Positions 1-45,360 of a stretch of DNA of 64,000 nucleotides are shown here, piece by piece. The stretch's first letter is position 1. Each line of letters starts with the position of its first letter. This DNA comes from Desulfurococcales archaeon (lineage in GTDB: Archaea > Thermoproteota > Thermoprotei_A > Sulfolobales > NBVN01): assembly GCA_023255955.1 (NCBI GenBank), contig JAGDWD010000009.1, forward strand, positions 21-64,020, given 5' to 3'. A program made the position numbers and the translations under genes. Under the pieces are notes generated by a model. The model did not search any database, was not told the origin of the DNA, and worked only from the letters and a program-made list of their open reading frames with translations.

Positions 1-96
1 CCAAGCCCCACACAAACCTCCCCAAAAACACCAACTACAAAACATAAAACAGAACCCTATAAATCCAACAAACACCAACCAAAAATAAAACAGCCC
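1..96 (+). repeat. Tail-only fragment of the interspersed repeat family. It is C/A-rich, ends in AAAATAAAACAGCCC, and is cut by the window edge.
   Basis: It is near-identical to the reverse complement of 35924-35983. It is also homologous to the C/A-rich 3' tails of the copies at 23023, 34236 and 40608. Confidence 0.6.
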
Positions 97-4951: not shown

Positions 4952-5227
4952 GGGCTCGCCCACCACTTTATCGAGATGACACAAAAATCCTTTTCCAGTC
5001 CATGGATGTCCAGGGCTGTTACATAGTTGGCTATTATTAGCTAGGTTTGCGAGTCCTGTTCTATGTATAGATTGAAATCTACCTAGGTGATGAGGCCCGC
5101 ATCGCCGGGCTCGACAGCTACTCATGACGCCGCGGAGTTACAGAGCCTGCAGACGAGGGAGATCCCTAAATGCGGCGAGTGAATATAAGTTAATGAAGAT
5201 GAACATCTAGGAGTGAACGGTGGGAGC

Positions 5228-14490: not shown

Positions 14491-15555
14491 GTGCCGATCC
14501 ACAATCAGCTATTGAAGGTTTTGAACGAGGTATCCAGGCTTCTTCTATCCGAGCTAGTGAAGTCGCGGGAGTTTCTCAGTGTCGTAAAGGACGTCCGGGT
14601 CTACGACATTAAGACCCCGGCTGGGGCTCCTCCTGACATAGTTGCCGGAGATTCTAGTAGTGCTGTGAGGGACTACTCCATGGCCTTACTGTACGCAGTA
14701 CAGGCCGTCGCGGTCCGAGTAGCTCGGGGATCCAGTAAGTTGGGGCATGTAGAGGTTGACGCGGGATACTACATCCCCAGCCCGACCTCGAGGGATACGT
14801 TAGCAGACGAGCTTGTGAGGAGGGCTGTCCAGTTCATATCTCGAGAGCTTGAAGCTGAGTCGGTGAGAGTGGCTTCTGAGGGAAGGGGAATAGCCCTCTT
14901 CGATGGCTCTATATTCACGTTCTTATGGTATGGTAAGCTCCCTGAGATACCTAGGTCCCTCGTCTCGTACAGGAAAATGCCCAGGAAATTCAGAGATATG
15001 TGGAGCTCGGTAGTTAGTCGGATACTGGAGATACATAAGTCCGACACGGTACCTATGTTCGTAGCTAAAACGATAAGGAGGAGCTACTACATCGAAAAGC
15101 TGTTAGGTAGTGATTCCACGCCAAGCCTCGAGGGTAGGATTAACGACCTGATACTGGTAAGCCTCCTAAGAGCTAGCGGGCGCATTCCGAGAAGGCCGTG
15201 CATCCTGGAGCCAGTATGGATCTCAAGTGTTGATGAGATGCCGAGACCTCTCAACACTCTGGAGCCGGAGGACCGCAGGCTGGTGGAGCCCATAGTTCCC
15301 ATTACGGTGACCTACGTATTCTTCAACCCAGCTACCCAGCCCTACCAGCTCACAGTACCGGGGAAGTGGAGGGGTGAGGAGCTGGCAGAGCTCGTATCAA
15401 GCATCTACCCATACTCCTACTCCGGATACCCGGAACCACTCAAAGTAGCTCACTGGATGAGCAGGGTAACCACCCGCGAACTCAGGCAGGCCCTCAGCAA
15501 GCTCGGGCTTTCATCCATACCTACAGGGCGGGAACTACTAGGTGAGATATTATGA
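14491..15555 (+). CDS. nurA: NurA 5'-3' nuclease
   Basis: IVAGDSSSAV catalytic Asp motif. It is the first gene of the nurA-herA-mre11-rad50 cluster and has an ATGA overlap with herA. Confidence 0.75.
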   Translation: MPIHNQLLKVLNEVSRLLLSELVKSREFLSVVKDVRVYDIKTPAGAPPDIVAGDSSSAVRDYSMALLYAVQAVAVRVARGSSKLGHVEVDAGYYIPSPTSRDTLADELVRRAVQFISRELEAESVRVASEGRGIALFDGSIFTFLWYGKLPEIPRSLVSYRKMPRKFRDMWSSVVSRILEIHKSDTVPMFVAKTIRRSYYIEKLLGSDSTPSLEGRINDLILVSLLRASGRIPRRPCILEPVWISSVDEMPRPLNTLEPEDRRLVEPIVPITVTYVFFNPATQPYQLTVPGKWRGEELAELVSSIYPYSYSGYPEPLKVAHWMSRVTTRELRQALSKLGLSSIPTGRELLGEIL

Positions 15556-17117
15556 GCTTGAAGGTCGTGGGAGTCGTTGGGGATCAGTCCACCCCGGTCG
15601 AGATAGACATCAAGGCCAACCACCCGCTACCTTCAGGAACATACATCTACGTGAGGTTCAAGACTAAGGATATAGTCAGAGAGTCTGAGAGTATTAGGGA
15701 GGTTGTCGGGATAGTGGGCTCCAGCATGTATAAAGCAGTCATCCCAGTAACCATGACCCCTACGACGGAGGTCTTCGAGAGCTACTTAAGCGATCTCAAG
15801 AAGGAGAGCTACATGAAGGCACTTATAGTAGCTGACATAACTAGTAGGAAACCTGAAGCTCCGAGATACCCTCCCCCACCCGAGACCCCAGTCTACCTAG
15901 CAAGCCCGGAACATCTGAGGGTTGTGTATAGCTACGACACCAGCAAGAGCGTGAGAATAGGGACTCTAGCAGGCTTCGAGGAGTTGGAGGTGGGGGTGAA
16001 CGTCAATGCTCTACCTAAGCACATCCTAATAGCCGGTACTACAGGCTCCGGTAAGAGTAACTTAGTAGCAGTACTTGCCGATAGGGTCGCCCAGATGGGT
16101 GGGTCTGTAGTGATATTCGATGTTCACGGAGAGTACCGTAACATGTCCCCTGAGTCCAGTGATGTAATTGTAACAACATATGAAGCCTCCATCAACGTAG
16201 TGAAAACACCTATAAGTCTCCTAACAAGCTTCATCATTCCCGAAAGATCGGCCACGAGACAGAGGAGGATACTTAGGAACGCTCTTAAGAACCTGAACAA
16301 CGAGTTAGTAAGCTTTGCTAGAGCTAATAGGATATCCATTAAGGAAGCTGTCCGTAGATTCGTCACCTCTAAGAATCTATGGGGGGATTCAGAACCTGTT
16401 GAGATGTATAAAGAACTCCTCAAGACCCGCCTCGGTACAGATAAGGTTGTTGAGGACGTGAAGGATAAGATTGATGACTTCTTTGAGTGGCATAGGGTTG
16501 ACCTCGAGACTCCTGATGTTGGTGAGGTAGTTGGTAACAGGAAGGTGGTTGTTGTGGACGTGTCTACGTTTAGGGATGACGAGAAGGACTACATGCTTAA
16601 GGTAGTTGCGGAGAACCTCCTATGGTTCCTGAAGGAGGGTAGGATACCTCCAACCCTCCTGGTTGTAGAGGAGGCCCACCTCTTCCTCAGAGCTGATAAG
16701 AGTACGTGGTCTAAGGAAGCTCTTCAGAGGTTCATTAGGGAGGGCAGGAAGTTCGGCGGTATGTTAGCTATAGTTAGTCAGAGACCGAGAGCTCTGGACA
16801 CTGAGGTAGTTTCGCAGGTGCAGAACTTCGCCTTCCTGAGGCTAGTCCAGAAAGCTGATAGGACTGCCGTTACGGACATCACGGACGTTCTCGGCGAGGA
16901 GTACGCGAATATCCTGCCGACACTACCACCAGGATACGGAGTGTTGGTTGGTGAGTGGGTAGGGTGGTACCCGGCGTACGTTAAGGTGGACCTACATAGA
17001 GGTAAGAGGGTTGGTGCCACCCCCGACGTAGTCAGTACCTGGAGGAAGGCCTTGGAGGTTGAGGAGGCTAGGTTACGTGATAGGGAGTCCCTAACTAAGG
17101 AGTGGGAGGGTGGGTAA
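15552..17117 (+). CDS. herA: HerA bipolar DNA helicase/translocase
   Basis: Walker A IAGTTGSGKSN and Walker B LLVVEEAHLF, with an operon context alongside mre11 and rad50. Confidence 0.85.
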   Translation: MSLKVVGVVGDQSTPVEIDIKANHPLPSGTYIYVRFKTKDIVRESESIREVVGIVGSSMYKAVIPVTMTPTTEVFESYLSDLKKESYMKALIVADITSRKPEAPRYPPPPETPVYLASPEHLRVVYSYDTSKSVRIGTLAGFEELEVGVNVNALPKHILIAGTTGSGKSNLVAVLADRVAQMGGSVVIFDVHGEYRNMSPESSDVIVTTYEASINVVKTPISLLTSFIIPERSATRQRRILRNALKNLNNELVSFARANRISIKEAVRRFVTSKNLWGDSEPVEMYKELLKTRLGTDKVVEDVKDKIDDFFEWHRVDLETPDVGEVVGNRKVVVVDVSTFRDDEKDYMLKVVAENLLWFLKEGRIPPTLLVVEEAHLFLRADKSTWSKEALQRFIREGRKFGGMLAIVSQRPRALDTEVVSQVQNFAFLRLVQKADRTAVTDITDVLGEEYANILPTLPPGYGVLVGEWVGWYPAYVKVDLHRGKRVGATPDVVSTWRKALEVEEARLRDRESLTKEWEGG

Positions 17118-17120
17118 GCA

Positions 17121-18293
17121 ACGCTACTACTACACGTCTCCGATACACACCTCGGAGCATCGAAACCTTTCAGTCACTCTAAGCCACGCGAGGAGGACTT
17201 CTACGAGGTGTTTGATGAGGTTGTCGAGGTAGCTATTAGAGAGCGTGTTGATGGTGTGATACACTGCGGTGACCTCTTCGACGACCCGGAACCTAGCCCT
17301 AGGGCATTTTACAACGCTGTTAAGTCCCTGAAGAAACTCTCGGGTGCTGGAATACCGTTCCTGGTTATCGCTGGCCAGCATGACCAGCCTAAGAGGGCTG
17401 AGGTGTCACCCCTCAAAGTCCTTGAGGAGGTCGGTGTGGCTAGGTTACTGGCGTTGGGGAAGCCTAGCACGGGTGTGGTCAACCTACGTAGTGGTGAGCT
17501 AGGTTTCACAGCCATCCCATACACTCCCCCGGGGGCTATGCACGGGGTTCTGAGGGAGCTGAGGAAGCCGGATACCAGGAGAAGTGTCTTAATGGCTCAC
17601 CTACTACTCAAGGAGTTAAATCTCCCTACATCGCACGTCTCCCTAGCGGAGCTCGGGGTCAGTGGCTTCAGTTACGTAGCCCTCGGAGACTACCATCTTA
17701 GGTGGTCGACAAACTACTCAGGTGTTCCGGTAGTATATCCAGGCTCTACTGAGGCTCTGGACGTGTTGGAGAGTAGTGATGAGAGGTACGTAGCTATGGT
17801 CGACCTAAGCGGGGAATCAGCATCTGTTAGCTGGGTTAAGCTATCCAGGTTTAGGAAGATACTGGTAGTTGATAACGTCTCGAGCTTCGCAGATCTTCAG
17901 AGAGCGATATTGAGGTACCGCTTGGAGGAGCTCGGAAAGAAGCCGATGCTGTACGTGAAGCTATCCCCTAAGGGGGGCTACACATCGAGCTCCGAGCGGG
18001 TTAGGATCGAGCAACTATTGAGGGATCTCGTACGACAGGGTAAGATCCTCAATTACAGGCTCGTACTTCCTGGGGTTGAGGAGGTTGAGGGTAGTGGGGT
18101 CTCTGAGGAGGCTCCACCACCGACACTAGATTACGTTGTTTATGAGGTTGTTAAGGATCCTGAGCTCTCCGAGCTCTTACTGAAGATTATTAGGGGTAGT
18201 GAGGGTGGGGAGGGTATCAGGAAGGTTATCGATGATGTCCTCGCTAACGAGAGGCTGGTGGAGAAGCTTAGGAAGGTGGTGTCTAAGAGATGA
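17121..18293 (+). CDS. mre11: Mre11 nuclease. The 5' end is placed at an in-frame ACG. The first canonical start is GTG at 17208.
   Basis: Phosphoesterase motif I LLLHVSDTHLG (17124-17156) and motif II HCGDLFDD. Motif I lies between the herA TAA stop (17115-17117, same frame) and the first GTG. Confidence 0.8.
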   Translation, partial: TLLLHVSDTHLGASKPFSHSKPREEDFYEVFDEVVEVAIRERVDGVIHCGDLFDDPEPSPRAFYNAVKSLKKLSGAGIPFLVIAGQHDQPKRAEVSPLKVLEEVGVARLLALGKPSTGVVNLRSGELGFTAIPYTPPGAMHGVLRELRKPDTRRSVLMAHLLLKELNLPTSHVSLAELGVSGFSYVALGDYHLRWSTNYSGVPVVYPGSTEALDVLESSDERYVAMVDLSGESASVSWVKLSRFRKILVVDNVSSFADLQRAILRYRLEELGKKPMLYVKLSPKGGYTSSSERVRIEQLLRDLVRQGKILNYRLVLPGVEEVEGSGVSEEAPPPTLDYVVYEVVKDPELSELLLKIIRGSEGGEGIRKVIDDVLANERLVEKLRKVVSKR

Positions 18294-20596
18294 TTGTGAG
18301 GGGATTGAAGCTCGTAAACATATTGTCACATGAAAACACCGAGGTTAGGTTCCCGGACGGTGTGCTATCTATAGTTGGACCGAACGGTGCGGGTAAGTCA
18401 TCACTGATCGACTCGATATACCTAGCACTCTTCTCTGAGGCCGTACCCAACATTAGAGGTGGGAAGAAGGAGTTCATAGTTATGCGCGGGAAGGAGAGGG
18501 GCGAGATCTCTGTTGAGTTCGAGGTGGGAGGTAGGAGCTACCTAGTAGTGAGGAAAATAAACCTGTCCGGACCGAGTGAAGCCTTCCTCTACGAGCTGGA
18601 GCGAGGCTCGAGGAGGTTGGTAGCTGAGGGAGCGTCTAACGTAGTTAGGGAAGTTGGGAGGGTTCTAGGGCTCTCAACCTACTCTACCGGTGAGGAGATT
18701 AGGAAGCTTGTGAAAGCGACTATACTGGCTCTTCAGGACGAGTTAACTGAGATAATAGATGTTAGAGACTCTGAGAGAAAGGAATGGATACTGTCTCTTC
18801 TAGGGCTTAGCTACCTGGAGAAGGCTTTGGAGGAGTTGAGGAACTACACGAGGGAGCTGAGGAAGGAGCTGGAGAAGGAGAGGAGTGAGAAGCTTGGGAA
18901 GTTGAACGTGTTGAGGAGGAGGGTTGACGAGAGTAGAGCTAGGATTAGAGAGCTTGAGGAGGAGTTGAGGGTGTACGAGGGGAGGTTGGCTGAGGCTGAG
19001 AGGAGGGTGAGGGAGTATGAGGGTAAGTTAAGCACTCTAAACTCCGCGATAGATCTCTGCTACCAGCTGAGGAGCGGGCTAGCCCTGAGGAGGATCTCGG
19101 AGCTGGAGGAGAGGGTTAGGTCCCTTGCCCCTCTCGAGAGCTGGGATCCTGAGGTCTACGCTCACCGTGAGAGGAGTCTCAGGGATAGGAGTAGGGAGCT
19201 GGAGAGAGTGGAGAGGGAGTTGGGGAAGGTCTTGGAGGAGCTGTCCAGGAAGTTGGGGACTCAGTTGAGGGGTTCTGAGGACGTCGATAGGTTTTACGGG
19301 GAGTTAGGTGAGCGTGTTCGGGAGCTTAGAGAAAGGGTGGGTAGATATAGAGGTCTGGCAGACCTCTACAAGCAGATGCTGTCCAAGCTTGAGTTAGGTG
19401 AGTCATGCCCAGTTTGTGGCTCTAGGATCGGTAATCCAGAGGAGGTTAGGAAGAGGCTTAACAACACTCTCAGTGAGATTGAGAAGGCTCTCTTCCTGTA
19501 TGATAGTGAGCGTAGGGAGCTTGAGGAGAGGTATCACTTGCTTGAGAGAATGTATCAGAGGTTGTCCGGGCTTGTTGCTAGTAGGGATAGCTTGATGAGG
19601 GATGTCCAGACGGGTAGGGAGGAGTTGGAGCAGTTGGTTAGTAAGGCTAGAGAGCTCTGCGACCAGATGAGGGTAGGGTTCTCAGTTATTGATGAGTGTC
19701 TCAGAGCTCTCAAATCTATGAGGGATGAGTTAAGGAACATTAAGGCGGAGTTAGAGGTTTATAGAAGGATGTTCACAGGTAGCGTTTCACAGCCTTCAGA
19801 ACCTGTCGAGGTCTTGGGGGACAGGTTGGTTAAGACGCTATCACAGTTGGGGATCTCACCACCAGCTGAGCTCACACTGGAGTCTCTAGATAGGTTAATT
19901 AACGAGGAGCTGAACCCTGCGAGGAGGAGGTTAGAGCAGGAGCTGAGAGCTGCTAGAGACGAGTTTAGTAGGTTGAGTGTTGAGCGTGCTAAGAAGTGGG
20001 AGTTGCTGGATGATAGGAGGAGGGAGGTTGAGGAGTTGGGTAGGGAGATTTCGTCTCTGGAGAGTGAGGTGAGGAACCTGGAGAGGAAGTTAGTAGCTGT
20101 AGACATTATCGAGAGCTTCGGTGAGAAGTATCTGGGTAAGGACGGGCAGGTAGCTAAGGGCTTAACAAGGGTTGTGAGGTCCGAGCTTGAGAGGAGGGCT
20201 AACAACATACTGAGCAGGCTCGGGCTACCCCGAATTAGGGTAGGGGAGGGCTTCGAGATAAGTGTAGTGCTACCCACAGGAGAGCTACCAGTGAGAAATG
20301 CTAGTGGGGGTGAGAGGGTCGGGATATCGATAGCACTCCGACTAGCTTTAGCAGAGATAGTTATGGGTAGGACCCCCACAACACTCATACTAGACGAACC
20401 GACAGTATACCTAGACGAGAACAGGAGGTCGCAGGTATTCGACATAATCAGAGAACTAGGAAGATCCCTCAAGCAGGTAATAGTAGTCACACACGACGAG
20501 ACCGTGATGAACATATCGGAGAAGGTAATCACAGTAGAGAACATAGGTGGAGTAAGCAGAGTAACAGAAAGCAGTGGACTCCCAGCACAGTTCTGA
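18290..20596 (+). CDS. rad50: Rad50 ATPase
   Basis: Walker A GPNGAGKSS, long E/R/L-rich coiled coil, CPVCG zinc hook, SGGE signature and LILDEP Walker B. ATGA overlap with mre11. Confidence 0.9.
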   Translation: MIVRGLKLVNILSHENTEVRFPDGVLSIVGPNGAGKSSLIDSIYLALFSEAVPNIRGGKKEFIVMRGKERGEISVEFEVGGRSYLVVRKINLSGPSEAFLYELERGSRRLVAEGASNVVREVGRVLGLSTYSTGEEIRKLVKATILALQDELTEIIDVRDSERKEWILSLLGLSYLEKALEELRNYTRELRKELEKERSEKLGKLNVLRRRVDESRARIRELEEELRVYEGRLAEAERRVREYEGKLSTLNSAIDLCYQLRSGLALRRISELEERVRSLAPLESWDPEVYAHRERSLRDRSRELERVERELGKVLEELSRKLGTQLRGSEDVDRFYGELGERVRELRERVGRYRGLADLYKQMLSKLELGESCPVCGSRIGNPEEVRKRLNNTLSEIEKALFLYDSERRELEERYHLLERMYQRLSGLVASRDSLMRDVQTGREELEQLVSKARELCDQMRVGFSVIDECLRALKSMRDELRNIKAELEVYRRMFTGSVSQPSEPVEVLGDRLVKTLSQLGISPPAELTLESLDRLINEELNPARRRLEQELRAARDEFSRLSVERAKKWELLDDRRREVEELGREISSLESEVRNLERKLVAVDIIESFGEKYLGKDGQVAKGLTRVVRSELERRANNILSRLGLPRIRVGEGFEISVVLPTGELPVRNASGGERVGISIALRLALAEIVMGRTPTTLILDEPTVYLDENRRSQVFDIIRELGRSLKQVIVVTHDETVMNISEKVITVENIGGVSRVTESSGLPAQF

Positions 20597-20638: not shown

Positions 20639-20716
20639 GGGCCCGTGGCCCAGCCAGGACAGGGCGCCGGCCTCCGGAGCCGGAGGTCCCGGGTTCAAAT
20701 CCCGGCGGGCCCGCCA
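20639..20716 (+). tRNA. tRNA-Arg (anticodon CCG), CCA encoded, no intron
   Basis: Cloverleaf folded by hand: acceptor GGGCCCG/CGGGCCC, D stem GCCC/GGGC, anticodon stem CCGGC/GCCGG with loop CTCCGGA, T arm CCGGG-TTCAAAT-CCCGG. Confidence 0.9.
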
Positions 20717-22445: not shown

Positions 22446-23950
22446 CTACCTGATCTGTACCTGACCTACCTTCGTATTGCGTAGCATGATAAGTAGAGGA
22501 ATCAGTAGGGCAGCCCCCACTGAGCAACCTAGGAAAGCTGCGTTAAAGCCGTAGCGGTCCACTAAGTACCCTCCTAACACACCGAACGTGAAGGAGCCGA
22601 GATACCCTACCGCGTTTATTATGCCTACCGAGATGGGGAGGAAGTCCCTGCTTACTGCTATTGATGGTATTGTCGTCGCCAGGTGCGCGTTAATACCGTA
22701 CGATACTGCACCTACAGCAAGTAGCTCCACTACTATCTGGATATGCCCGTAGGTAGCTGGGGTAGTTAGGGAGTATGTTAGGAGGGCTGTAAGTAGGGTT
22801 GAGAGAAGTAGTGGCCTCACCTTCTCCATCCCGTGATAGCGGTCCAGGACATAGCCGTGAAGAACCATTCCAACCGCTCCTGCTATTAGTGTAGATGGTG
22901 TGGAAGGACTGATTACTGTAGAAAGGTAGGAAGGTACGTAGAGCTCAAAGACCCTCCTTATGCCGGTAGAGAGGAAGTAGGCAGTAGCTATAAGTACGAT
23001 TAGTACCGAATACCTACTTAAACCGTTTGTCCCTAGATGCTCGTTGACGTGGGTTTATGTTTGTTCATCGCATCTAGGGACTTCCACCTCGCCCGTAGGG
23101 ATCTACTTATCCCTGCTGGTCGTGGGTGGCTGTCGAGCCCAACGGCACGGGGCTCCCATCTACGTCTAACCCCGCAGAGCTCGGAGCACTGCTCCCATCA
23201 CTCAGCAGGGTATCAAAGCTACCTACAGAAATGAAGTTAGTAAGCTTAACGCATAACCCCAGAGCACAGCAACCCTAAAAACCATAAACACAACGACCAC
23301 TAATCAAAAACAGAACAGCCCCTCCAGGCTCCCCGATTCTGAGCTCCCCTACTAGGATAACCCCCCACACGCAGCCCAACTAACCTCCTTAACGTAGCTA
23401 CAGATAGACAACATAGAGTAGCTGTCATCACTCCGTTCAAGACGAAACCAAACCTCCAGCCTAGTGCGGAAACTACGAACCCTGTAACAATCCATGTAAT
23501 AGATATGCCGAGTGCCCAGCTAGTGTTAAATAAACCCATATACCTCCCAAGTCCCTCCCCCTCGAGAGCTGTCGCCAAGATCTCAACTAGTGAGACCCAG
23601 GCAACTGACTGAAAGAGCCTGTTCAAACCCCACATAACAGCGAACCACTCTACACTACCTAAACACCCAAATACGACATTCGATAAACCAGACAGTACCG
23701 CCCCAACAAGTAGGAGGGTCCAGGGACCTCCCACTACAACGAAGTAACCACTAACTATCTGACCTAGGGAGTAGGACAGAGAGAAGAGGCCGGATATGAT
23801 GCCCATAGCTGTGTAGCTTAGGGACAGCTCCTCTATAGCGTAGGGGAATGCTACCGAGAAGTTGAGTCTGCTTAGGTAGAATAGTACGTAGATAGTCCAC
23901 GAAGTAAGCACAAAACCGATGTTTTTCAGTGTAGTGCGCACTATCAGCAT
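22446..23950 (-). pseudogene. MFS transporter interrupted by a repeat-element insertion in the central loop
   Basis: The N-terminal six-TM half (23323-23950) ends 20 nt into the element. The C-terminal half continues in another frame from about 23022 (GLSRYSVLIVLIATAYF...) down to 22446. Confidence 0.7.
23023..23322 (+). mobile_element. Interspersed structured repeat, copy A. It is antisense to the MFS gene it interrupts.
   Basis: It aligns by eye over its full length to 34236-34535 and to the reverse complement of 40608-40908. It has a perfect hairpin GTCCCTAGATGC (23029-23040) / GCATCTAGGGAC (23070-23081). Confidence 0.7.
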
Positions 23951-33035: not shown

Positions 33036-34679
33036 GTGTTAACCTACTACAATATACAATATCTACTACAGAACATCTCTTCCACTCGGGTTTCAGCAGT
33101 GGTATCGGAGGAACTTGTACTGGCTATCTCCCAGGAGCCCAGAAAGGAGTGTCCCCTCCTAGTCCCGGAGGGCTTCGGGCCTCTAGCAGGTGTTAGAGTT
33201 GTTTCCTCCGGGATCCTAATAGCGCAGCCCTTCGCGGCTTACATGGCTGCTCTCTGGGGTGCTGAGGTAATTCATGTGGAGAGACCTGGGGGTGATACCT
33301 ACAGATACTCACCGCCCTTTATGGAGTCTAGTGAGGGTAGGGTTAACACGTGGTGGGCTCAGGAGAGGAGGAACGTCCTGTCGATTGTAGTGGACCTCAG
33401 GAAGGATAGGGGTAAGGAAGTGTTCTTGAGGTTGCTGAGGCAGGCTGACATATGGATGGAGAGCTCCATGCCTGGAACCCAGAAGCTTGGGATTACGGAT
33501 GAGCTAGCTCATAAGGTAAATCCCCAGCTGGTATAGTTCACGTATCAGGGTTCGGCCACTTCGGAGACCTAACTACTTGGGGTTACCAGCCTACGACGGC
33601 TATTGCTGCTGCCTTCAGTGGTTGGATAAGTATTAACGGATTTCCAGATAGCCCGCCCTATAAGCCGTATCCCTACACAGGCGACTACGTAACAGCTCTT
33701 CACGCACTATCAGCAGCTCTAGCTGGTTACATATATGCAAAGAGAACCGATAGGGGAATCTCAATAGATGTCGCTCAGTTTGAGTGTATAGCGAATATCT
33801 TCGGGGGCTATGGCTCCAGACTACAGAGCTCGGTGACGAGCCCGGCAGGTACGGGAATAAGGACAGGTACTTCCAACCCTACGACATATTTGAGACTAAG
33901 GACGGGGAGTACATATTCATAGGAGCCCTAGGGTACGAGGTCTTCCGAAGGCTCTGTGAGGCTTTAGGGCTCGACTTCAATGAGTGGCGGGACGTGCACT
34001 ACGCCCCGGGAATGCATACAGAGAAAGGTAAGCTCTTCGACTCCATACTGAGAGAGTGGGTGAGGAACAGGACAGCTAGTGAGGCACTGGAGGTACTCAA
34101 GAACTATAAGGTGCCGTGCTTTAAGGTATATAGACTAGGAGATGCCGTGAAAGACCCTCACTACAAAGCACGGGAAAACTTCATTGAGTGGGTTGACGAG
34201 AACCTCAAGAAGAAGATAAGGGGGTGGAGCATAGTCCGTTTGTCCCTAGATGCTCGTTGATGTGGGTTCATGTTCGTTCATCACATCTAGGGACTTCCAC
34301 CTCGCTCACAGGGGTTTTTGGTACCTCTGTGGGGTCATGGGTGGCTGTCGAGCTCAACGGCACGAGGCTCCCATCTACGTCTAACCCCGCAGAGCTCGGA
34401 GCACTGCTCCCATTACTCAGCGGGGTGTCCAAGCTACTTATAGGAATGGAGTTAATGAGCTTAACGCATACCCCAGAACACAGCAACCCTAAAAACCATA
34501 AACACAACACCCACCAATCAAAAACAGAACAGCCCAAATTCGATATGGAGAAAAAACCGAGGATATGGAGAGGCGCTCCCAGACTAGGCCAGGACGCCCT
34601 CGAAATACTAACTAAGCTACTAGGATATAGCCCCAACGAAGTTGAGCAACTTAAGAATAGTGACGTGATTTGTTGCTGA
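33036..34679 (+). pseudogene. Family III CoA-transferase (CaiB/BaiF/Frc-like) with two frameshifts and a repeat insertion
   Basis: GPLAGVRVV...GAEVIHVERPGGD in frame 0. VSGFGHFG...GISIDVAQFE in a second frame from about 33534. GRYGNKDRYFQPYDIFETKDGEYIFIG in a third frame after the GGGGG run at about 33803. The C-terminal APRLGQDALEILTKLLGYS follows only after the 300-nt insert. Confidence 0.75.
34236..34535 (+). mobile_element. Interspersed structured repeat, copy B. It is in sense orientation within the CoA-transferase pseudogene.
   Basis: Full-length alignment to copies A and C with the same hairpins. It is flanked by coding sequence on both sides: ...KKKIRGWSIV and KFDMEKKPRIW... Confidence 0.7.
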
Positions 34680-35923: not shown

Positions 35924-35983
35924 GGGGCTGTTTTATTTTTGGTTGGTGTTTTTGGGGAGGTTTGTGTGGGGCTTGGTGTTAGC
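35924..35983 (-). repeat. Tail-only fragment of the repeat family, inverted relative to 1-96
   Basis: Its reverse complement CACCAAGCCCCACACAAACCTCCCCAAAAACACCAACCAAAAATAAAACAGCCCC matches 1-35 plus 79-96 almost exactly. Confidence 0.6.
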
Positions 35984-36560
35984 TATGTTTTCTCTCGGTG
36001 GGTTGGGGAGGGTAGAATTGGAGCTGTTAACTCTATGGGTTGAGGAGTCAGAGGAGGAAGCTAGTTGAAGGATTCGAAAACTACTAGGAGAGGTTGAGGA
36101 GGAGTGAGTAGTGTTTCGAGAACTGTTATCGTTAAGAGTACTTCACCTCTAGGAGGGTATCTAAAGTTAGGAGGAAATCGTAGGGAGATGTGGAGGAAAT
36201 CAGTAGACCTAAGCTTGAAATGATTAGACAGCTGGGGCCGATATTTCTCGGGATCCACGTCGATGCGCTTTGAGAGTGCCTTGGGGAATGATGAAGATGA
36301 GGATGAAGGACGTTAGGACCGTTGTTAGGTCAGGAGCTAAGGAGGTCAAGGCTGTAGAAAGTAAAATAGTTAGGAAGAGTAAAGAAAATCAGAGGATTCG
36401 GTAAGATGTTAGACTAGATTAAGAAGGAAGGCCAAGAAAATTATTAACATAAGAATTTATCGTGCTAGGCTAATATCGCCCTAACTGCTACCTGAATAAA
36501 CCAAGGATGGTCCTAGACGGGTGAGAGACGAGGTAGCCTACTACTCTTGAAACCTAGGTA

Positions 36561-40607: not shown

Positions 40608-40908
40608 GGGGGCTGTTCTGTTTTTGATTAGTGGTCTCTGTGTTTATGGTTTTTAGGGTTGCTGTGCTCTGGGGTTATGCGTTAAGCTTATTAACTTCAT
40701 TTCTATGAGTAGCTTGGATACCCCGCTGAGTGATGGGAGCAGTGCTCCGAGCTCTGTGGGGTTAGACGTAGATGGGAGCCCCGTGCCGTTGGGCTCGACA
40801 GCCACCCATGACCCGCAGGGATAGGTAGATCCCTGTGGGCGAGGTGGAAGTCCCTAGATGTGATGAACAAACATAAACCCACGTCAACGAGCATCTAGGG
40901 ACAAACGG
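40608..40908 (-). mobile_element. Interspersed structured repeat, copy C (intergenic, reverse orientation)
   Basis: Its reverse complement aligns end to end with copies A and B. Confidence 0.7.
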
Positions 40909-42633: not shown

Positions 42634-42877
42634 CCGTTTGTCCCTAGATGCTCGTTGATGTGGGTTTATGTCCGTTCATTGCATCTAGGGACTTCCACCT
42701 CGTCCACAGGGGTTTTCCTACCCCTGTGGGGTCATGGGTGGCTGTCGAGCCCAACGGCACGGGGCTCCCATCTACGCACAGCCCTAGGGAGCTCGGAGCA
42801 TCGCTCCCATTACTCCCTAGAGCATACACCCTCCAATAATAAAATTCCCTACACAACCCTAATAAACTTTTTGGCCC
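42634..42877 (+). mobile_element. Interspersed structured repeat, copy D (diverged, shortened tail)
   Basis: It has the same 5' end CCGTTTGTCCCTAGATGC and the same hairpin order, with stems changed in a compensatory way. The right boundary is approximate. Confidence 0.6.
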
Positions 42878-44667: not shown

Positions 44668-45360
44668 GTGTATTCTAAATTGGTGGAAAAGTTGTTGATT
44701 AGGTGGCACGGTCATGCTTGCTTCGAGATAGTAGACTCAGCTGGCTACACCATAGCTGTCGACCCACACGACGGGTACAGCATCGGTATGAAACCCCCGT
44801 CATTTAAAGCTGACGCTGTATTGATAACTCACGAGCACTTCGACCACAACGCATATAATGTGGTGGCTAAACCCGGGGCTGAAAGATACTCGATGAAGGA
44901 GGGTAATTTCCTTCTAGGTGGGAAACATAGAGCTAGGGGTGTGAAGCTCTACCACGATAAAGTTAAGGGGAGGAGGAGGGGTGAGGTAGTTGTTTACAGA
45001 ATCGAGGTAGATGGTGTGGGGATACTCCATCTGGGTGATTTAGGACATATCTTCGATGAGAAGGTAGCTGCTGAGCTGAAGCCTGTGGACATCCTTATGG
45101 TACCTGTCGGGGGGACGTTCACGATAGATCCTCGGGAAGCGTTCGAGGTAGTGAAGCTGATTGACCCTAAGATAGCTATACCGATGCACTACTGGGTTAG
45201 AGGTGTTAACCTACCCCTACAGCCGGTAGATGTGTTCATAGAGATAGTGAAAGACGCTTACGAAGTTATTACTGCTAAAACAAACGAGCTTGCTGTGACT
45301 GCTGAAGATCTCCACGAGATATCTAAGACGAAGATCTACGTACTTTCCCCTCCTAGCTAG
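44668..45360 (+). CDS. MBL-fold metallohydrolase (UPF0173-like)
   Basis: THEHFDHN motif and later GDLGH. Confidence 0.7.
   Translation: MYSKLVEKLLIRWHGHACFEIVDSAGYTIAVDPHDGYSIGMKPPSFKADAVLITHEHFDHNAYNVVAKPGAERYSMKEGNFLLGGKHRARGVKLYHDKVKGRRRGEVVVYRIEVDGVGILHLGDLGHIFDEKVAAELKPVDILMVPVGGTFTIDPREAFEVVKLIDPKIAIPMHYWVRGVNLPLQPVDVFIEIVKDAYEVITAKTNELAVTAEDLHEISKTKIYVLSPPS

Follow-up and report, generated by a model that had tools for sequence, protein, structure and literature searches.

The stretch of DNA analyzed here, 64,000 nucleotides of a contig (JAGDWD010000009.1) from a Desulfurococcales archaeon, hereafter called the window, carries an interspersed family of repeats about 300 nt long. In an earlier reading based on the sequence alone (the sequence-only reading), these repeats were taken for a structured RNA or single-stranded DNA family matching no known element. 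The present analysis indicates that they are very probably miniature gene-less derivatives (mini-IS, PATE-like) of an insertion sequence of the IS607 family occurring in Desulfurococcales-type hyperthermophilic archaea, the right part of which matches the omega-RNA scaffold of TnpB. The claim that no known element could be matched does not hold, since the known biology of IS607 and of the TnpB omega-RNA fits the repeats (PMC6188088; bioRxiv 10.1101/2023.11.20.567912; PMC10055086).

The copies present in the window were recovered by repeat finding and sensitive blastn, which confirmed the existence of the interspersed family. Three of them are full (A, B, and C, 298–299 nt each), two are right-end fragments (D and E) and two are left-end fragments, located at 1-95 and 35926-36158. 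In the orientation adopted in the sequence-only reading, blastn placed copies A to D at 23023-23322 (+), 34236-34535 (+), 40609-40908 (-), and 42634-~42815 (+), and the identity to copy A amounts to 95% in the case of C, 88% in that of B and 85% over 182 nt in that of D. The fifth piece, copy E, is a diverged one (65% identity) detected at 5081-5220 by blastn and pattern search. The pattern CCTAGATG-N70-100-GCTGTCGAGC has five matches in the window, versus 0.00 expected from shuffles. Of the four full or near-full copies initially reported, A, B, and C are full; D, in which the left end is missing, is a fragment. The true repeat unit is 298–299 nt long, counting the GG at either end. All the sequence elements listed previously (CCGTTTG, the 11–12 bp hairpin, CCACC/GGTGG, GAGCCC/GGGCTC, GGAGC/GCTCC, and the AACAGCCC end) are found in the alignment, as are the paired differences quoted (GGGAT/ATCCC vs. 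GGGGT/ACCCC, and CCCCGCAGAG/CTCAGCNGGG vs. CCCTAGGGAG/CTCCCTAGAG). The 5' to 3' orientation has to be reversed: the functional strand is the reverse complement, CCGTTTG is the right end ...CAAACGG, and the C/A-rich tail (AACAGCCC) is the left end GGGCTGTT.... Read on the minus strand, copy A begins with GG-CTGTTCTG at 23320 (left end) and closes with ...CATCTAGGGACAAAC-GG at 23023 (right end).

The parent element was found by comparing a profile of copies A-D (nhmmer) with the loci obtained in a pattern search on one genome per GTDB species. The first pattern applied genome-wide, made of 18 fixed bases and a gap of variable length, gave mostly chance bacterial matches, and nhmmer was used to sort them. 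Positions 1 to about 196 in the initial orientation matched in approximately 16 archaeal loci, belonging to metagenome-assembled genomes (MAGs) of Desulfurococcaceae, to Ignisphaera, Thermosphaera, and Thermogladius sp. KZ2Tp1, and to "Sulfolobales" MAGs, and this stretch is the only one conserved across loci. In Thermogladius KZ2Tp1 (locus L015) and Desulfurococcaceae KUA_Bin13 (locus L024), it corresponds, in reverse complement, to the 3' end of open reading frames (ORFs) of 404–445 amino acids (aa). Since these ORFs carry the Cas12f1-like_TNB domain (PF07282, E=1.7e-13) and match TIGR01766 with 68 bits (cut-off 32), they can be said to encode TnpB. A profile built from eight of these TnpBs matches solved TnpB/Cas12f structures (9nzp, E=5.5e-8; also ISDra2 8exa, 8h1j); this profile was needed, as a single-sequence phmmer search with TnpB against the PDB gave no match. 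The RuvC residues D188, E276, and D362 and the zinc-ribbon residues C334 and C352 are invariant in the TnpB alignment, which therefore shows both the RuvC-like D-E-D triad and the zinc-ribbon (TNB) insertion. The gene ahead of tnpB in L015 (5832-6644) matches NF033518, "IS607 family transposase," with 247.5 bits (cut-off 110), and its product TnpA also matches Pfam Resolvase and HTH_17: a serine recombinase with an N-terminal MerR-like helix-turn-helix is thus encoded beside the left end. The Thermogladius element is about 2.0 kb long, begins with GGGCTGTT and ends with CATCTAGGGACAAACGG, and the order in the full element is left end (GG-CTGTT), serine-recombinase tnpA, tnpB, and right end ...CATCTAGGGACAAAC-GG.

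The copies in the window are colinear with the ends of these elements. Copy A aligns with the long elements over ~47 nt at its beginning, in the left end, and over ~188 nt at its close, in the right end, and the 298-nt copies retain ~47 nt or more from the left end along with the last ~190–240 nt, corresponding to the tnpB 3' terminus and the right end. Only TnpB residues ~345–404 can be mapped by tblastn onto the window copies, and the structured part overlaps the last 60–85 tnpB codons on the opposite strand. Frameshifts interrupt this C-terminal remnant in A, B, and C, and only in D is it open. The 63–65-codon ORFs noticed previously inside the copies are indeed not a selected feature, but they turn out to be antisense to the real coding remnant, the tnpB C-terminus. 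Likewise, the view that structure rather than protein is under selection is correct as far as these short same-strand ORFs are concerned, but overlooks the tnpB coding remnant on the other strand. A search for an autonomous partner, as had been recommended, yielded both a TnpB gene just outside the window and the IS607 serine transposase of the relatives mentioned above. The TnpB gene, which encodes 431 aa and has conserved D-E-D columns, begins 127 nt left of the window start (L112 4711-6006); the element carrying it has the same ends as the miniature copies, and its tnpA is reduced to a remnant. The window contains no full transposase gene, as stated previously, but it does contain a tnpA remnant (35957-36040, 29 aa, E=6e-5 in tblastn). 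A further miniature copy (L112_2965) lies just outside the window, at L112 2649-2965. Since A, B, C, and L112_2965, which occupy four different loci, have one common internal deletion junction, they are to be regarded as a single deletion derivative that multiplied, and not as four independent decay products.

The junctions of copy A bear the insertion signature of IS607. Copy A is inserted in the part of an MFS transporter gene encoding the central loop of the protein. An intact ortholog of 402 aa (P0001), which is 80% identical and shows conserved synteny, has the residues W-R-D-L-S-R-Y at this point, encoded by TGGAGGGATTTAAGTAGG. The occupied site is TGGAGG-GG-(CTGTTC...CAAAC, 294 nt)-GG-TTTAAGTAGG (right flank TTTAAG), and the site in the ortholog is TGGAGGGATTTAAG. 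Deleting 296 nt, namely the 294-nt body and one GG, gives an in-frame W-R-G-L-S-R-Y and a protein of the same length as the ortholog. Excisions of 297 or 298 nt were rejected because they leave an in-frame stop, and that of 299 nt because it leaves one residue fewer than in the ortholog; as only the removal of 296 nt gives the ortholog's length, the GG-crossover model was preferred to the alternatives. Copy A is therefore inserted at GG, a dinucleotide found at each junction, and nothing else is duplicated. Direct reading of the ends GGGCTGTTCTG... and ...GGGACAAACGG shows that they are not inverted copies of each other, in line with IS607, and the right-end alignment stops sharply at ...ACAAACGG. 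The earlier description of a mobile repeat having neither terminal inverted repeats nor an ordinary target-site duplication was thus accurate. Among the metagenome matches listed, the base located 5' of GG-CTGTT is a G in 59 of the 64 unique insertions. An intron (bulge-helix-bulge, group I or II) in the MFS mRNA was ruled out by the transposon ends, the tnpB codons, the GG junctions, and the existence of identical intergenic units. The contigs obtained by exact-protein look-ups for an empty site were either identical to the window or short and broken inside repeats (L005, L234), and no empty site in a close strain was among them.

These features can be compared with those of the IS607 elements previously described, which target GG with a preference for (G)GG, carry GG at their termini and have no inverted repeats or target duplication (PMC6188088). 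In the IS607-type element of Clostridium botulinum, TGGG is both the target of TnpA and the transposon-adjacent motif of TnpB, the scaffold ends in UCGG, the intermediate is a circular double-stranded DNA, and 40 bp of the left end plus 60 bp of the right end are enough for excision (bioRxiv 10.1101/2023.11.20.567912). In the present family, the scaffold ends in ACGG and the junction motif is NGGG. Like the Helicobacter pylori IS607 and the C. botulinum IStron (PMC6188088; bioRxiv 10.1101/2023.11.20.567912), it lacks terminal inverted repeats, inserts at GG with a preference for (G)GG and has GG at both junctions; its full-length relatives show the order left end, tnpA, tnpB, right end; its scaffold end is ...CGG and its target motif NGGG; scarless excision is predicted, and short ends would be enough for mobilization in trans. 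Unlike these two elements, the copies in the window are gene-less, consisting of ~47 nt or more of left end and ~190–240 nt of right end, their host is a hyperthermophilic archaeon, no group I intron is present, and the scaffold has no Rfam match. As in the TnpB omega-RNAs or right-end element RNAs (reRNAs) of ISDra2 and those derived from RAGATH-18 (PMC10278001; PMC11061315), the structured region overlaps the tnpB 3' end, stops exactly at the right-end boundary and comprises several covarying helices, possibly with a CCGUU/AACGG pseudoknot, and the flanking DNA would supply the guide; unlike the reRNAs described, it matches no Rfam family, RAGATH-18 included, and its RNA ends are predicted ones. 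The PATE-like IS605 elements of Geobacillus (PMC10055086) also lack genes, join a left end to a right end, have multiplied, and provide an omega-RNA for TnpB in trans, but they depend on a Y1 tyrosine (HUH) transposase and single-stranded hairpin ends, whereas a serine recombinase and a GG crossover are involved here. Lastly, the repeats resemble classical prokaryotic miniature inverted-repeat transposable elements (MITEs) in that they are small, non-coding, multi-copy, and interspersed and derive by internal deletion from an autonomous insertion sequence; they differ from MITEs, which are defined by terminal inverted repeats and target-site duplication, in that no inverted repeats occur at their termini and only the GG crossover dinucleotide is shared, with no other duplication of the target site.

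The folding of the right part was analyzed on 27 right ends from many genomes, aligned in the tnpB-sense orientation, in which six helices comprising 48 pairs were defined. In this set, 86.2% of the cells were paired, versus 79.0±0.6% in shuffles and 34–46% when the partners were slid, 105 cells were changed on both sides (44±5.7 in shuffles), and double changes were observed in 26 of the 48 pairs. The covariation of the stems, first noticed on the copies in the window, therefore holds on copies from several genomes; that seen previously, chiefly between D and A-C, largely reflects the divergence between parental lineages. In 69 related sequences, the ratio of G·U to C·A was 246:103, all six helices leaning toward the tnpB-sense strand. 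The minimum-energy fold of the 188-nt right part of copy A gives the same six helices on the sense strand (z = -5.27, vs. -3.88 on the antisense strand). These data point to the tnpB-sense strand as the one that folds, which would be consistent with an RNA. As in known omega-RNAs, a conserved structured region covers the 3' end of tnpB and stops at the boundary of the right end. The Rfam search suggested previously was run, and the statement that no known RNA family matches the repeat was upheld: cmscan of the window at the gathering threshold detected only tRNA, and at E-values up to 10 on 22950-23400, two noise matches only were obtained, the RAGATH-18 and IS605-orfB motifs being unmatched. 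In the putative minus-strand RNA, the CCGUU loop of hairpin 3 (23079-23092) is complementary to the 3' terminal AACGG (23023-23027), both sides are nearly invariant, and one double change (U-A) occurs in locus L008. This complementarity suggests that a pseudoknot may form between the loop and the 3' end.

Scanning metagenomes with the right-end terminus gave more than 114 loci, the contig set of the window itself not being among the matches listed. These matches include at least 48 uniquely flanked short elements composed of a left end and a right end (217–393 nt, mode ~250–257) and at least 16 long elements (1528–2019 nt), most of which have TnpA and TnpB, TnpA matches being found in at least 10. 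The right ends at L118-L231 are of two scaffold types, which share no more than their final ~75 nt, comprising the terminal hairpin and ACAAACGG, and differ in the upstream helices; the second type accompanies TnpBs of ~415–420 aa with a CxxC...CxxC zinc ribbon. In a Desulfurococcaceae MAG (L008 1161-1479), two right-end copies stand head-to-head with an overlap of ~17 nt. Several short public contigs from the same or close strains (L005, L114, L115, and L234) end inside or at repeats, which indicates that this family of elements fragments the metagenome assemblies of the organism.

The coordinates of the copies and of the features associated with them are given in Table 1. Copy E, which has the same orientation as queC, stops 7 nt before the probable ATG of this gene (5228), and is kept with a few substitutions in two strains showing ~97% identity (L114 and L115). 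The solo left end at 35926-36158 is one arm of an inverted repeat (I7), the other arm of which is formed by positions 1-41 of the window. Elsewhere in the window, a pair of 42-nt direct repeats (15338-15379 and 44945-44986, 74% identity) is probably due to chance. Based on the order of the Pfam matches, positions 14491-20596 (+) carry an operon of the NurA-HerA-Mre11-Rad50 type, followed by tRNA-Arg(CCG) at 20639-20716; this arrangement is consistent with an archaeal host and is unrelated to the repeat.

Table 1. Repeat copies and associated features in the window.
Feature	Position	Strand	Description
MFS transporter gene split by copy A	22446..23950	-	N-terminal part 23950-23321, C-terminal part 23022-22446
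Copy A, complete miniature element, very probably of the IS607 family	23023..23320	-	298 nt including GG at each end
Copy A, putative omega-RNA scaffold region	23023..23210	-	tnpB 3'-end remnant and right end; six covarying helices
Copy A, predicted guide segment	23003..23022	-	Flanking DNA 3' of the right end, TTTAAGTAGGTATTCGGTAC; predicted from IS607 TnpB biology (bioRxiv 10.1101/2023.11.20.567912)
Copy B, complete miniature element	34236..34534	-	299 nt; within an already fragmented CoA-transferase family III gene
Copy C, complete miniature element	40611..40908	+	298 nt; intergenic, between a POR-family gene and an ASCH gene
Copy D, right-end fragment of a different lineage	42634..42856	-	Last ~60–70 tnpB codons in one open frame and right end; no left end
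Copy E, old degenerate right-end remnant	5081..5220	+	~65% identity; just upstream of queC
Solo left end, decayed tnpA helix-turn-helix remnant (35957-36040), and tnpB start	35926..36158	+	92% identity to the neighboring element with tnpB, outside the window on its left
Left end of a ~1.5-kb tnpB-only element	1..95	-	Body left of the window, L112 4701-6229

In the light of the data available on related systems, the miniature elements might work as follows. The right part would encode an omega-RNA scaffold on the tnpB-sense strand, the transcription, RNA 5' end, and TnpB loading of which we infer, and the guide would consist of the ~16–20 nt of flanking DNA located 3' of ...ACGG. TnpA acting in trans would excise the element as a double-stranded circle and reinsert it at (G)GG sites. 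TnpB, also in trans and supplied, for example, by the copy adjoining the window on the left, would load the omega-RNA derived from the mini-IS and cut the emptied donor site, recognized by the NGGG motif and the guide match, after which recombination would restore the element. In the case of copy A, the guide would correspond to the empty donor site beside a GGGG motif, the predicted TnpB target being TGGAGGGG+TTTAAGTAGGTATTCG. Copies D and E and the solo left ends would be dead fragments. The use of an omega-RNA by TnpB in trans and the restoration of the donor site have been demonstrated in the case of the IS605 PATE-like elements and with IS607 mini-IS constructs (PMC10055086; bioRxiv 10.1101/2023.11.20.567912), and the four copies sharing one junction at different loci lend support to the idea that the mini-elements may have been mobilized in trans. 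It is quite possible, although we put it forward only tentatively, that the mini-elements constitute a working, self-spreading "guide-only" layer of the archaeal IS607/TnpB system, in which each copy expresses an omega-RNA with its own flank-derived guide; the scaffold of this RNA, with its six helices and perhaps the pseudoknot joining a loop to the 3' end, would belong to a class outside the Rfam models.

Several observations weigh against this interpretation or against parts of the assignment to IS607. The TnpBs match the NCBIfam model guided_TnpB (NF040570) with 84.6–95.2 bits, below the curated cut-off of 100, and the middle ~65 nt of copy A have no nucleotide match among the long elements sampled. 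The removal of copy B under the GG model leaves the frame of the CoA-transferase unrestored, in a gene that is also broken elsewhere. This CoA-transferase family III gene (33036-34679, +) is in at least three pieces (33036-33536, 33784-34260, and a tail at 34536-34679), and copy B lies between the last two. When the whole 300 nt were folded, the strand initially chosen scored better (z = -3.04 vs. -1.46), a result attributable to dilution by the unstructured left end. In the mini-IS subfamily (A, B, C, and L112_2965), variation is as frequent in paired columns as in unpaired ones (15/96 and 16/94, respectively) and each copy has 1–4 broken pairs out of 48; much of the covariation may have been inherited from the coding parents and not maintained in the miniature copies. 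Neither the window nor the 6 kb to its left contains an intact tnpA, only decayed remnants being found nearby, and present-day mobility in this genome is thus an unproven proposal.

These last points are also those expected if the copies were inert fossils, derived from IS607 but dead, which neither guide nor move and whose paired changes were inherited from parents under the combined constraint of omega-RNA and protein. The 5–12% differences between copies and the clearly fragmentary state of D, E, and the solo left ends would fit this picture as well. We nevertheless regard it as rather unlikely, since the miniature form did transpose, as shown by the four loci with one deletion junction, 44–47 of the 48 pairs are still intact in each copy, G·U pairs on the sense strand account for most of the one-sided changes that preserve pairing, the window is adjoined by an apparently intact TnpB sharing the right end, and at least 48 uniquely flanked short elements exist across metagenomes. 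That E, upstream of queC, or the copies located in genes might be domesticated guide modules regulating the host via a nuclease-dead or trans-acting TnpB (TldR-like) seems very unlikely: E is kept upstream of queC in the ~97%-identical strains and TnpB domestication has been documented (PMC10705468), but E has decayed strongly (65% identity, many pairs broken), A and B interrupt genes and are not at promoters, and the nearby TnpB retains its D-E-D columns.

The hairpins might also be DNA structures recognized by a single-strand transposase, like the subterminal hairpins of IS200/IS605, which are bound by a Y1 HUH TnpA. TnpB is common to IS605 and IS607, a strong hairpin adjoins the right end, and this terminal hairpin, taken alone, shows no clear strand bias (G·U:C·A 33:26, a weak lean to the sense strand). 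However, the partner found is not a Y1 HUH enzyme but an IS607-type serine recombinase (NF033518), which acts on double-stranded DNA (PMC6188088). No hairpin is apparent at the left end, which was not exhaustively examined, ~190 nt are folded into six helices with the G·U enrichment on the tnpB-sense strand reported above, and insertion occurs at GG with GG on both sides, and not 3' of a tetranucleotide without duplication; this explanation is therefore highly improbable. Hardly any credit can be given to the initial proposal of an unknown structured RNA or single-stranded DNA family unrelated to mobile elements and with no protein partner. The lack of Rfam matches at either threshold, the non-inverted termini and the absence of a full transposase gene from the 64-kb window spoke in its favor, but it is refuted by the colinearity with the ends of TnpA/TnpB-encoding IS607-type elements, the TnpB gene 127 nt outside the window and the NF033518 transposase of the relatives, and the tnpB C-terminal codons and the GG insertion signature also contradict it.

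Recognizing the repeats as IS607 mini-elements removes a false lead, in which an IS607/TnpB derivative read on the wrong strand passed for an unknown structured RNA family. What is new here is an IS607 mini-element from an archaeal hyperthermophile with an omega-RNA scaffold unmatched by Rfam; the kind of element is already known and will not surprise specialists, and the value of the finding lies mainly in annotation and in the mining of thermostable TnpBs. The covariation-supported scaffold, the NGGG motif, and the set of hyperthermophile TnpBs may be of use in searching for compact thermostable RNA-guided nucleases, and copy A provides a clean natural GG-crossover insertion within a gene, with an intact ortholog for comparison. 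As regards the biology of these organisms, an abundant gene-less IS607 derivative is now documented in Desulfurococcales-type archaea, with at least 48 short copies on hot-spring-type metagenome contigs, which breaks assemblies and splits genes. If the mini-elements do work as proposed, dozens of insertions devoid of genes would be protected in hyperthermophiles by a handful of TnpB genes, and disruptions like that of the MFS transporter gene could be undone by scarless excision.

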